DNA of 64,000 nt from Spirochaetia bacterium (GCA_963675665.1 OY776510.1:5024001-5088000); one strand, 5' to 3'. Positions 2,987 through 8,512 are shown, numbered from the stretch's first letter. Program-made: numbers and translations. Notes: generated by a model not told the origin, from the letters alone.

Positions 2987-3376
2987 ATGAAAAAGATTAA
3001 ACTTTTTGCGGTACTTGTGATCCTGCTTGTTGTAATGATGTCATGTCAGACGGCAACATTTTCCGGTCTTCAGATGACAAAGGATATGGATTCCTTTGTT
3101 GTAGTTAAAGATTTCGAAACAACGGTATCTGTATGGGAATTCCTCGGAACTCCTGCCGGAGGGAACCTCTTCAATATTACAGCTGACGCCATGGACGATC
3201 CTGTTTTCCAGGCTGTTCAGAATGAGATTCAGAAACTCGGCGGAGACGCTGCTGTGGATATCACACTTGTTCAGGAAGCAACTCTTGTCGATATGATTAT
3301 CGGCGGCGTAACCGGTTCTATTCTTGCTCCATGCAAGGTTCATATCACCGGTACAGTTGTAAAATTTGCTGATTAA
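2987..3376 (+). CDS. Small lipoprotein, unknown function
   Basis: RBS AAGGAG; signal peptide with lipobox-like MMSC; GGDAAVDI motif reminiscent of YbjQ/TRL-like small lipoproteins. Confidence 0.7.
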   Translation: MKKIKLFAVLVILLVVMMSCQTATFSGLQMTKDMDSFVVVKDFETTVSVWEFLGTPAGGNLFNITADAMDDPVFQAVQNEIQKLGGDAAVDITLVQEATLVDMIIGGVTGSILAPCKVHITGTVVKFAD

Positions 3377-5478: not shown

Positions 5479-6378
5479 TCAGATTATTTCAACCGTTTCT
5501 TTCCCAAGCATGCATGTGAATGATTTTTCCGTCCAGCGCCTGTATATACAGTTATAGCAGCTTTGAGAATCCCCATCGACAAACTCTTCCGGAACATCGG
5601 GTTTAAAATGCCCGCAAGCCCGTTTAACTGCCCTGGCCTCTCCAAAACGCCGCATTTCATTCTTTACCAGCGTTAACCAACAGCTGTTTTCAGGATTCCG
5701 CCGGACAATCAGCACGGGCCGTCCGGCATGCAGAACAGGCTTGGCTTTCCAGCTGATAACAACTTCTTCATTGAAACCAAGCGGCTTCATATCTGTCGTA
5801 CAGACTTCAGCAATATGCGAATTCGTTAAAAGCGCATCGACGGTGAATCTCCCGCCCTGTTCATAATCCGCAATACCGCCTTTCACCTCTCCGTCATAAC
5901 CGTGAAGCCGCAAACCTGCTCCGGCCAGCGCTCCAATAATACCATCGCCGGTGCCGCCGGTTTCTTCAAGAAAGATCCCTGCCTGTCGGGAAAGACTGTA
6001 AGCATGCTGCTTTGTCATAACTTCAGTCTTGGCCCTGTATCCGAATTCAATAACCTTGCTGCGTTCTGTAATTCGATCAATATCGGCAATACAGATACCG
6101 GGATCCGAACCGGCAGCCATCTCCGCAGCCAGATATTCGGTAAGCCCGGTTTTCAACTGCTCAAAGTAACAATCTTCTGCTGTTGTATTAAAACACATTG
6201 AGCTGTTGTGCGAGGTATAACGTACATCCTTGTGCAGCACAAGCTGATGCCGGGATATAATTCCGCAGCGTCCCCACCCCTTTCGTTCAATCAGTTCAGT
6301 CATTTCGGCTGCAATGGAGCCGGTGCCTCTTGATTCCAGATTGTCGGTGTCATCAATGCAGATAAGCAGATTCATCAT
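5479..6378 (-). CDS. TiaS/DUF1743 N-terminal-like protein with C-terminal Cys-rich domain
   Basis: ICIDDTD...RHQL...YTSHNSSMC...SDPGIC...GIIGALAG motifs; C-terminal C-x2-F...CYNC-x-YRRW...C. Confidence 0.65.
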   Translation of the reverse strand: MMNLLICIDDTDNLESRGTGSIAAEMTELIERKGWGRCGIISRHQLVLHKDVRYTSHNSSMCFNTTAEDCYFEQLKTGLTEYLAAEMAAGSDPGICIADIDRITERSKVIEFGYRAKTEVMTKQHAYSLSRQAGIFLEETGGTGDGIIGALAGAGLRLHGYDGEVKGGIADYEQGGRFTVDALLTNSHIAEVCTTDMKPLGFNEEVVISWKAKPVLHAGRPVLIVRRNPENSCWLTLVKNEMRRFGEARAVKRACGHFKPDVPEEFVDGDSQSCYNCIYRRWTEKSFTCMLGKETVEII

Positions 6379-6478
6379 TAAAGCTCCTTAAGCCGATAAA
6401 AGATAATTCTGTTTTCGTGATTTCCTTTGGTATCAAAAACCTGGTAAAATCAGGGAACCTCTGATATGATGTGACCCA

Positions 6479-6484
6479 TGTCAA
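6479..6484 (-). promoter_or_regulatory. -35 box (TTGACA) of the IS circle-junction promoter
   Basis: Joining the right end to the left end at the core gives TTGACA-17 nt-GACAAT pointing into the transposase. Confidence 0.7.
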
Positions 6485-6525
6485 GTTAAAATATCCAGGT
6501 TTTATCTATAAGATCCCCCCCCTGT

Positions 6526-6724
6526 CCAGGACAGGAAGAAAGATAGAACAACGTTTATGCGGCGATAGACCACTCTGATATTCGCGGATTGGTTACCGCA
6601 GGTCAATGGGATCGTCGGGAGCTGCCTCTGTCTAAAACCGAGGATCAATATTATTATTGCCTCATAGAGGTGCCGAGGGTTCTCCTTTATCACTGTTGTT
6701 GTTCTATCCATCCTTCTGTCCTGG
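6526..6724 (-). ncRNA. Putative bridge/seek RNA in the IS right end
   Basis: ~27-bp imperfect closing stem (6526-6552 with 6698-6724) enclosing two stem/internal-loop/hairpin units whose loop strands match the insertion target and the donor junction. Confidence 0.8.
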
Positions 6725-6748
6725 TAGCTTATTAACCAACTATCGAAG

Positions 6749-7852
6749 TCATGCGACTTCTGTTCTACCTACCATCATTCCCCAAATAAATCCTGATAAT
6801 TCTCTGGCAACTGCCGTAACAGTTTTCTGAGGGCATACCCCTCTACGAATCATCCTGAAATATTTCTTACTCAACCTTCTGCCGGCTTTATCAGCATAAG
6901 CTATTGTTTCAGCAGATTGTCCTTTCCTTCTCGCTGTCAGTCGTTTCGATGGCGAATACCTTTGGTAATGCCAGCTTGATTCCACTAACAGCCGTCGTAG
7001 CCTGGAGTTGCCGGCCTTCGTAATCCCGCCAAGCTTCCGGCCCTCTCCGCTTGAGTATTCTGACGGCACAAGTCCAAGATACGCCATGAAGGATTCCGCT
7101 TTTTTAAATCTTCTGAAATCTCCTATCTCGCATACAAATGTTAATGCTGTTAATGTCTCTATACCTTTGAAACATCGAAGCCGGGATACCCTTTCTTTAT
7201 ATCTGTCTTCAGCAGCAATCTCTTCTATTTTTTCCTGCAACCGTTCAATCTTTTCCTCTAATTCCACAATCGCAAGATAATATTCTTTTAAAACTTCTTT
7301 ATGCATTACCTGTTCAAACTGCAAGTTTTTCAACCAGGTTCGATGCGCCCCTGTCCAGTACTTTTTCCCAATATCATATTTCTTCCCGTTCCTTAGCAGA
7401 AACTGTAAGAGCCTCTGTTTCTGTTTCCTCAAATCAATTTTCATATCGTTACACATCCTCATGTAATCACGAACTGATTCATCTGTGCGTGTCGGTATAT
7501 TCACCGGTGTTATTTCCTGATTCCTTAATGCTCTGGCTAATTTGACTGCATCCCTCTTGTCTGTCTTTATTCGGTCTCCGGGTTTCCTCGGCAATAATGA
7601 TGGTGCTGCTACGTAACAGATAATTCCCATATCTTCAAGTAATCTATAAAGTGTAAATCCTGTAGGGCCTGCTTCGTAACAACACAGAATATTTTCTCCA
7701 TTCTCTTTAAGTCGCTTGAAGAATCTTTTAATATTTCCGGGTTCGTTCCTGAGCTCTCTTTCAAACTCAGGATTCTGATAATTATCTCTGAATACCGCTA
7801 CTGCGATTGATTCCTTGTGGACATCCATCCCTACATAAATTACACTATTCAT
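6749..7852 (-). CDS. IS110 family transposase / bridge recombinase
   Basis: RuvC-like DEDD domain (VGMDVHK, CYEAGPTG, KTDKRDA); C-terminal Tnp domain (YLGLVPSEYSSG, GGITKAGNSRLRRLL, AVAREL); start set at ATG 7852 with RBS GGAGG. Confidence 0.95.
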   Translation of the reverse strand: MNSVIYVGMDVHKESIAVAVFRDNYQNPEFERELRNEPGNIKRFFKRLKENGENILCCYEAGPTGFTLYRLLEDMGIICYVAAPSLLPRKPGDRIKTDKRDAVKLARALRNQEITPVNIPTRTDESVRDYMRMCNDMKIDLRKQKQRLLQFLLRNGKKYDIGKKYWTGAHRTWLKNLQFEQVMHKEVLKEYYLAIVELEEKIERLQEKIEEIAAEDRYKERVSRLRCFKGIETLTALTFVCEIGDFRRFKKAESFMAYLGLVPSEYSSGEGRKLGGITKAGNSRLRRLLVESSWHYQRYSPSKRLTARRKGQSAETIAYADKAGRRLSKKYFRMIRRGVCPQKTVTAVARELSGFIWGMMVGRTEVA

Positions 7853-7956
7853 AGTGGCCTCCGTTCCTTTGTATGTGGCGTGTCTGCGCTTTGCCATTAG
7901 CCATTGTGTAGGCTAATCCACGATTTTGCAAACACGGCGGTCACTTCATATTGTCT

Positions 7957-7990
7957 AAAAATCCCACTTTCGGGTTATTTGAGGTTCCCT
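7957..7990. repeat. Right part of a REP-like palindrome interrupted by the IS (left part 6452-6462)
   Basis: Reconstructed AGGGAACCTC-TAAAAATCCCACTTTCGGGTTATTT-GAGGTTCCCT with a perfect 10-bp outer stem; lies immediately 3' of the nitroreductase stop. Confidence 0.8.
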
Positions 7991-8512
7991 TCAGATAATC
8001 CTTACTCTTTCGTTAAAAGATTTTTTCTCACGGCGAGGATGCTCTTCCAAAGGCTTTCCAACAGGGATTAGTATCCGAATTACCCTCTCGGAATCAAGGC
8101 TGCATAATTCGCTGATTGCATCAGCTCTGTTCCCGGTTCTGAGCCAGCCGTCAATCCAGACAGCGGCATAGCCGAGGGCGGTTGCACCAAGCAGTATATT
8201 CTCGGCGGCAGCTGCGCAGTCTTCCACGACGAATTCGTAATCCAGGTTAGATTTATTTGGAACCCTGTCGACATGGCAGGCAATAAATGCAGGCGCGGTT
8301 GACATTGCTTCATTTCCGCCCGGCATTGTGTTTATCTTTTTAACGACATCGGGATCTGCAATTATAAGAAATCCGGTTGTCTGGGCATTTTTACCCGACG
8401 GGGCATCAACACCCGCCTGAACTATTTTACGCAGATCGTCAAGCGGTGGTGCTGCCGCGTTCAACTTCTTTCTGTAACTGAAACGATTGCCTGCAACCTC
8501 AAAAAAATCCAT
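7991..8512 (-). CDS. Nitroreductase family protein
   Basis: RFSYRK, APSGKNAQ, DCAAAAENILLGATALGYAAVWI motifs. Confidence 0.9.
   Translation of the reverse strand: MDFFEVAGNRFSYRKKLNAAAPPLDDLRKIVQAGVDAPSGKNAQTTGFLIIADPDVVKKINTMPGGNEAMSTAPAFIACHVDRVPNKSNLDYEFVVEDCAAAAENILLGATALGYAAVWIDGWLRTGNRADAISELCSLDSERVIRILIPVGKPLEEHPRREKKSFNERVRII

Follow-up and report, generated by a model that had tools for sequence, protein, structure and literature searches.

The window, a stretch of 64,000 nucleotides from the genome of a Spirochaetia bacterium (GCA_963675665.1, OY776510.1:5024001-5088000), contains an insertion sequence read on the minus strand, which carries a transposase gene (tnp) between two non-coding ends. 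The right end, which lies 3' of tnp, is 286 nt long (6463-6748), and the left end is 102 nt long (7853-7954). A long non-coding region 3' of tnp is the layout described for IS1111-type elements (Siddiquee et al., 2024, PMC11187229; Durrant et al., 2024, PMC11208160), and it is within this region that a structured guide RNA is predicted. The positions of all features are listed in Table 1. The upstream neighbour of the element (7991-8512) encodes a nitroreductase-family protein, and its stop adjoins the palindrome that the element interrupts. For the downstream neighbour (5479-6378, minus strand, 299 aa) the only Pfam match, to the TCKD domain of TiaS, is below threshold (20 bits, with a cut-off of 27; E = 7e-4).

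Table 1. Features of the insertion sequence and its surroundings, in window coordinates; the strand is that on which the feature is read.
Feature	Position	Strand	Remarks
Whole insertion sequence	6463..7954	-	1492 bp; left end begins ACAATATGAAG at 7954, right end closes CATCATATC at 6463
Transposase/recombinase gene	6749..7852	-	367 aa from MNSVIYVGMDVHK; in-frame upstream ATG at 7897 would give 382 aa
Predicted bridge/seek RNA gene, structured core	6526..6724	-	From fold, consensus fold, covariance model and paired changes; extent is that of the core, not of transcript ends
Closing stem, 5' arm	6698..6724	-	27 nt, 85% complementary to the other arm
Closing stem, 3' arm	6526..6552	-	27 nt, inverted repeat with 6698-6724
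Right target guide (RTG)	6665..6674	-	GGCACCUCUA = GGCACCU + CU + A; complementary to top strand of T-AG-AGGTGCC (core + right target)
Left target guide (LTG)	6631..6637	-	UUUU + AG + A; same sense as left target TTTT-AG; 4/4 at three copies, 3/4 at four
Right donor guide, candidate	6601..6610	-	CCCAUUGACC; AUUG pairs with CAAT of left end, one C pairs with core G, rest mismatched
Left donor guide (LDG)	6574..6581	-	AUAUCAGA = AUAUC + AG + A; same sense as right end ...ATATC-AG
Core dinucleotide AG, left junction	7955..7956	-	Precedes ACAATATG in 7/7 copies and in relatives having a left end
Core dinucleotide AG, right junction	6461..6462	-	After CATATC in 7/7 copies; AA in the L025 family
Subterminal inverted repeat, right end	6464..6476		1 nt in from terminus; 13 nt, 92% (12/13) complementary to 7939-7951
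Subterminal inverted repeat, left end	7939..7951		3 nt in from terminus; pairs with 6464-6476
TTGACA, -35-like hexamer	6479..6484	-	16 nt from right terminus; read by eye
Left part of interrupted target	7955..7990	-	REP-like palindrome AGGGAACCTC-AAATAACCC-GAAAGT-GGGATTTTT-AG
Right part of interrupted target	6452..6460	-	AGGTTCCCT, 3' arm of palindrome

An earlier note on this DNA, made from the sequence alone, had described the open reading frame as an IS110 transposase, and the domain searches bear this out. The protein matches the NCBIfam model NF033542, 'IS110 family RNA-guided transposase', with 240 bits against a cut-off of 140, and contains the Pfam domains PF01548 (DEDD_Tnp_IS110, 2.7e-13) and PF02371 (Transposase_20, 3.5e-22). 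A DEDD RuvC-like domain forms its N-terminal part and a Tnp domain with the conserved Ser-Gly pair its C-terminal part, as is characteristic of the IS110 family. Among solved structures it matches the IS621 (8wt6) and ISCro4 transposases. In a pairwise alignment to 8wt6, residues D10, E60, D98, D101 and S268-G269 stand opposite D11, E60, D102, D105 and S241-G242 of IS621, the alignment being significant for the C-terminal domain only (E = 2e-10, residues 195-290) and weak in the N-terminal part (i-E 6.7). These residues of IS621 are reported as catalytic (Hiraizumi et al., 2024, PMC11208158). The closest relative of the transposase outside this genome was found in a Spirochaetales MAG, with 76% amino acid identity, in a genome-collection scan that gave six loci. 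The 90% cluster to which the transposase belongs has two members, both from this genome, and shows no name; it is therefore plausible that the system is uncharacterised.

The genome, which is a single contig of 5.15 Mb, contains seven copies of the element. Each is exactly 1492 bp long with identical ends, and the nucleotide identity among them is 99-100%; there is also one relative of 68% identity (L008, discussed below). The transposase reading frame is intact and 100% identical in six of the seven copies, and 99.7% identical in the other. The junctions shared by the copies read ...TT(T/A)TT-AG on the left, followed by ACAATATGAAG...CATCATATC, and then AG-AGGTTCC on the right. All copies have AG on both sides, which indicates insertion without duplication beyond a short core. 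A shared core had been noticed earlier and is indeed present at the junctions; it had been read as TCT, and is better given as AG (CT on the plus strand), because L008 has AG-A at its left junction (CCCGT-AG-A) and AG-C at its right (ATATC-AG-C). The target and donor reconstructed in the earlier note agree with the junctions common to the seven copies and with a contig from a public metagenome run (X6) that contains the site without the element. This 560-nt contig joins position 6459 to 7954 and has 2 differences on one side and 11 on the other. It skips 1494 bases (1492 + 2, with three ambiguous letters), and therefore represents an empty allele in a related strain.

All seven copies and L008 lie on the minus strand of the contig, an arrangement with a chance of roughly 1 in 64 to 1 in 128. 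This bias is not tied to the direction of replication, because the copies flank both sides of the extremes of the cumulative GC skew (0.84 and 3.54 Mb). Most of the relatives examined also have a TTGACA close to their right end. If the element forms a circle, the junction would place TTGACA 17 nt from GACAAT (formed by the core G and the left end), which suggests a putative junction promoter. A promoter scan of the linear copy found no sigma-70-like site on its minus strand. Among the public-run contigs compared, which would rarely show a circle junction, there was none.

When written on the sense strand of the element, the target derived from the seven sets of junctions is TT(T/A)TT-AG-AGGT(T/G)CC. 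The recognition code proposed in the earlier note, GG(C/A)ACCTCTAAAA on the plus strand, is the consensus of these seven insertion sites. To the left of the core the sequence is TTTT at three sites, TATT at three and CTTT at one; to the right it is AGGTTCC at four sites, with AGGTGCC (L005), AGGTTAC and AGGTTTA occurring once each. Six of the seven insertions are at the same position, in one arm of the palindrome GGAACCTCTAATAAGCCC-AATTT-AGGGTTATT-AG-AGGTTCC, and the seventh (L007) is outside any palindrome. A hidden Markov model of the palindrome gave 62 matches at E <= 10 on both strands, which we read as roughly 25-30 loci, some of them unoccupied.

In the predicted RNA a closing stem surrounds two internal loops, a target loop and a donor loop. 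The closing stem of about 27 bp that had been proposed earlier is present, and the closing stem, CCUC/GAGG outer stem, inner hairpin and GCGG/CCGC hairpin described there all occur in the minimum-free-energy fold. This fold, calculated for 6500-6750 on the minus strand, has an energy of -76.5 kcal/mol (z = -2.9, with one of 200 shuffled sequences as good) and a closing stem of 9 + 4 + 12 pairs. No match was found in Rfam 15 at E <= 1 over 6300-8100 on either strand.

Relatives of the element were taken from the six loci of the genome-collection scan and from 14 of 401 same-phylum genomes that had a match at E <= 1e-40, G000 (the present genome) included. As the earlier note had suggested, a covariance model was built, here from the RNAs of nine relatives with a consensus fold made with RNAalifold. 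The model matches the window once, at 6527-6722 on the minus strand, with 213 bits. In a search that took one representative of each multi-copy family (leaving out L001-L007, L015, L016, L029-L032, L035-L042 and L044), it detects the RNA in 19 sources out of 23; the other four (L020, L022, L034 and L043) show truncation or rearrangement beyond the 3' end of the gene. In the resulting alignment of 19 sequences, 89.5% of cells are paired, compared with 72.0% in shuffled alignments (none of 500 shuffles reaching the observed value) and 43-50% when the partners are slid, and 38 of the 52 pairs show changes on both sides; these pair counts favour the structure, because the alignment was fitted to the model. 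Helix 1, the closing stem, has compensatory changes in 20 of its 22 pairs.

The outer stem of the donor loop has a competitor. RNAalifold gives as an alternative a small hairpin pairing A1 columns 169-172 with 178-181, in which column pair 171/179 covaries (GC four times, AU four times and GU once). The outer-stem pair 192/273 of A2 is AU in eight sequences, GC in five, GU in one and unpaired in five. The data fit both arrangements, and the outer stem is kept here tentatively, by analogy.

The four loop strands are found in the minus-strand sequence exactly where the earlier note had put them. On the RNA, RTG (6674-6665), which is complementary to the top strand, lies 5' of LTG (6637-6631), which is complementary to the bottom strand; the same order of guides is described for IS1111-type seekRNAs (Siddiquee et al., 2024, PMC11187229). 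Outside the core, RTG matches the right target at 7/7 positions at L005, at 6/7 at four sites including the one in the window, at 5/7 at one site and at 4/7 at one. The earlier reading of this strand needs a small correction: GGCACCU fits AGGTTCC, the commonest right target, at six of seven positions, and the full match is to AGGTGCC, which occurs at L005 only. Six of the seven occupied sites, including the commonest target, are mismatched to RTG at position +5. Immediately 3' of its core, RTG has an A in the window element, which pairs with the T of the cognate target, and a G in six tabulated relatives. LTG fits the left target and core, as proposed. It has the sense of the left target and core, and would therefore pair with the bottom strand. 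The core of LTG is followed by an invariant ACA, which is the same as the first three bases of the left end. Handshake guides of the IS621 type, as defined in PMC11208158, were not recognised, there being no consistent pattern among the tabulated relatives.

In the donor loop, LDG fits the donor junction as had been claimed, since it has the sense of the right end followed by the core. For the fourth loop strand, CAUUGACC, the pairing to the left end is partial, again as the earlier note had found: the fit consists of AUUG opposite CAAT and one base of the core. In the candidate guide as delimited in Table 1, the bases facing left-end position +1 and the first base of the core are mismatched. 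The left end is nearly invariant, and the right donor guide accordingly showed no covariation. A discontiguous pairing of the right donor guide is reported for IS621, nine RNA bases being set against seven donor bases (Durrant et al., 2024, PMC11208160), and the weak fit of the fourth strand is therefore not out of character for such a system.

The genome contains four unoccupied sites that match 12 of the 13 guide-plus-core positions. A further 70 sites match at 11 of 13, of which seven are the copies' own RTG-coding DNA and most of the others seem to be empty. A second palindrome family, ...CTGCAG-TTTTT-AG-AGATTCC, accounts for many of these and appears unoccupied by the element. This second family (...TCTCTAAAAACTGCAGTTTTTAGAGATTCCC, with the variant ...AGAAGTCCCC) occurs for example at G000:C1:241331, 1885882 and 4206779, and at C1:5076588, near the window copy. 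A match of sequence does not alone predict occupancy, because good-matching sites stand empty; position-specific tolerance of mismatches, hairpin context or simple under-saturation could each explain the empty sites.

The same observations bear on whether the element is still mobile. It might be a fossil in this genome, with a recognisable RNA and transposase and no further movement, and the mismatch of RTG at +5 in most occupied sites, the many good sites left unoccupied and the lack of a circle junction among the contigs compared (where one would rarely show) all point this way. We nevertheless consider it unlikely, given the 99-100% identity of the copies, the reading frame preserved at 100% in six of them and 99.7% in the seventh, the empty allele of the same site in a related strain, and the presence of all the catalytic residues. 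It is similarly doubtful, though worth noting, that the choice of target needs more than a 13-nt match to the RNA, in that the structure of the DNA hairpin or mismatches at particular positions may also be read, and that the ACA after the LTG core may be a bottom-strand 'handshake' of a kind not described for IS621. Such a reading might hold because six of seven insertions share the same position in a hairpin arm, good sites are empty, and RTG is mismatched at +5.

The earlier note had proposed a test of whether the loop strands covary with the insertion sites of other copies, and among the relatives both target guides and LDG do follow the flanks and ends. The comparison of guides with flanks was made without L013, a truncated element in which the target loop is misaligned, and L014, which is a fragment. 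On average RTG matches 4.12 of 7 positions in the element's own flank compared with 1.59 in the flanks of others (n = 16; 0 of 20000 permutations), LTG matches 3.08 of 5 compared with 1.74 (n = 13; 2 of 20000), and LDG matches 4.94 of 6 in its own end compared with 4.52 in other ends (n = 17; 2 of 20000), although these permutation figures overstate the independence of the data because the relatives are kin. The register of the model is shifted by one position in L008 and L026 at least, an error that lowers the own-flank scores rather than raising them. In all 17 elements the LDG base adjoining the core is the same as the last base of the right end, and this holds through four states: C in 13 elements, T in two (L023 and L028), A in one (L017) and G in one (L026).

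The clearest single case is L008, the relative that shares the genome with the seven copies. In scaffold and donor loop it hardly differs from the window element, while both target guides have changed to fit its own flanks: the target strands are UAAAAAGCU and CCGUAGA, and the flanks are AG-CTTTTTT and CCCGT-AG. On this evidence L008 looks like a decayed, naturally retargeted copy. It is located at G000:C1:4456572-4458051 on the minus strand, with its reading frame cut short at about 330 aa, in a non-palindromic site (CCCGT-AG-CTTTTTT). Its donor guide AAUACC has one mismatch to the right end CATATC.

A 224-nt contig from a public soil-metagenome run (X9, depth 4.5) covers the RNA and differs from it within RTG at 6670, 6672 and 6673, giving GAGAUCUCUA; it also differs at window positions 6650 and 6679. 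The altered guide would fit AG-AGATCTC, which is close to the second palindrome family, and the variant is possibly a further natural example of retargeting.

These comparisons allow a different origin for the structured region to be weighed. It could be no more than a terminator, a stabiliser or a translational regulator in the 3' UTR of the transposase mRNA, with no guide role, its likeness to the target and ends being a by-product, for example as remnants of duplicated ends. The poor fit of one of the four strands is compatible with this, and the strong conservation of one half of the donor loop could equally reflect binding of a protein. However, it is the loop strands, and not the stems alone, that follow each element's own flanks; the core-adjoining base of LDG tracks the right end through four bases in 17 of 17 elements; L008 has changed both target strands for a new site on an unchanged scaffold; and the geometry is the published one, as described in PMC11208160 and PMC11187229. 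A plain 3' UTR structure is disfavoured because it leaves unexplained why the loops follow the flanks, and we regard it as very improbable.

A 69-aa open reading frame (6502-6711, minus strand) overlaps the RNA, and its frame is free of stops across the whole RNA in seven of the eight closest sequences, most of which keep the ATG; a small protein is nonetheless rejected as next to impossible because there is no codon periodicity (variable columns fall evenly over codon positions 1, 2 and 3, at 39/65, 36/65 and 40/64), and moreover L021 has an in-frame stop, the frame is lost in more distant relatives, the peptides vary freely at the loop positions, the ATG lies inside the closing stem with no spaced ribosome-binding site, and the stems show compensatory changes.

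We conclude that 6463-7954 on the minus strand is very probably an intact IS1111-type member of the IS110 family, with a gene for a bispecific guide RNA (bridge RNA or seekRNA) in its non-coding 3' end, at about 6526-6724. The earlier note had suggested a bispecific RNA of this kind, and this is upheld: the loop strands, the fourth of them in part, follow the published geometry, being addressed to opposite strands and overlapping at the core, and both target guides and LDG covary with flanks and ends. The analysis supports the view that the bridge/seek RNA system, of the IS1111 type, is complete, and its ends, core, guides and natural targets are mapped. Transcription of the RNA, its binding by the transposase and its programmability would be expected by analogy with characterised members of the family.

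By the same analogy, with IS621, ISEc11 and ISPa11, a mechanism can be outlined. The element would excise as a circle, and the junction of the circle, ...ATATC-AG-ACAAT... (...CATATC-AG-ACAATATG...), would be the donor. The transposase, with its DEDD RuvC-like domain and Ser268, would bind the RNA, the two loops of which would hold donor and target together, and strands would be exchanged at the AG core. The element would then land without duplication, in most cases in one arm of the REP-like palindrome (TTWTT-AG-AGGTKCC).

As ISEc11, ISPa11, ISKpn4 and ISPst6 are described in PMC11187229, they resemble the present element in having a long non-coding region downstream of tnp and subterminal inverted repeats (for which a range of 7-17 bp is given for the class). 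The same account of IS1111-type seekRNA systems gives the transposase motif GL-P----SG, which is shared here as GLVPSEYSSG, and the systems it describes are also alike in the order of the guides, in their overlap in the target and in each lineage having its own target. The transposase here is 367 aa long, whereas 330-350 aa is quoted there for the family. The target here is a REP-like palindrome of this genome, the comparison with those systems being by description only.

IS621, as described in PMC11208160 and PMC11208158 and in the structure 8wt6, is alike in having separate internal loops for target and donor. The cores are also alike, AG here being CT on the other strand, and the DEDD and Ser-Gly residues align. 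Both elements target a REP-type repeat, and the weak, discontiguous pairing of the candidate right donor guide here would be in keeping with IS621. By contrast, the RNA here is in the right end, 3' of the gene, while that of IS621 is in the left end; the order of the guides is reversed; and the subterminal repeats here are long. ISPpu9 (PMC12288879) and ISPpu10 (bioRxiv 10.64898/2026.03.19.712850) of Pseudomonas putida are likewise reported as multi-copy IS110-family elements in repetitive extragenic palindromes. The ISPpu10 preprint puts forward a 'dual-match' idea, in which the hairpin structure adds to specificity. In the present genome, six of seven copies are in one palindrome family and one is outside any, and both the host phylum and the repeat differ from those of the Pseudomonas elements.

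Bridge RNA and seekRNA recombinases are under development as programmable tools for the insertion, deletion and inversion of DNA. The list of parts for such tools grows with every natural orthologue that is well defined, its ends, core, guides and a set of natural targets having been mapped. The system in the window is unusually completely documented in silico, with seven insertion sites, an empty allele and a retargeted sibling in the same genome, and about a dozen relatives indicate which loop positions would be programmable. As a new example of a type of system described in 2024, it is sound but unremarkable. No concept is changed by it: 'RNA-guided transposase' is already the NCBI name of the protein family, and bridge RNAs were predicted in 93% of IS1111 elements by Durrant et al. 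(PMC11208160). Its value lies mainly in being a documented orthologue for engineering and in the small natural example of retargeting provided by L008 and possibly by the X9 variant.

Among the more distant relatives, L017 (G367:C178), which is from another genus and has 52% amino acid identity, carries nearly the same target guides as the window element and sits in TTTT-AG-AGGTTCC, which appears to be a convergent case; its right end closes ATATA and its donor guide is AUAUA. A relative of 39% identity is present as five copies (L025, L031, L037, L041 and L044) within 754-848 kb of G270:C1, spaced about 20-28 kb apart. In this family the left junction has AG and the right junction AA (ATATC-AA-ACCG), and T-AA-ACCGCT is the sequence to which RTG is complementary, so that donor and target may have different cores in this lineage. 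Within the window, the exact palindrome arm motif AGGGAACCTC occurs again at 3160-3169 on the plus strand, about 3.3 kb from the element.
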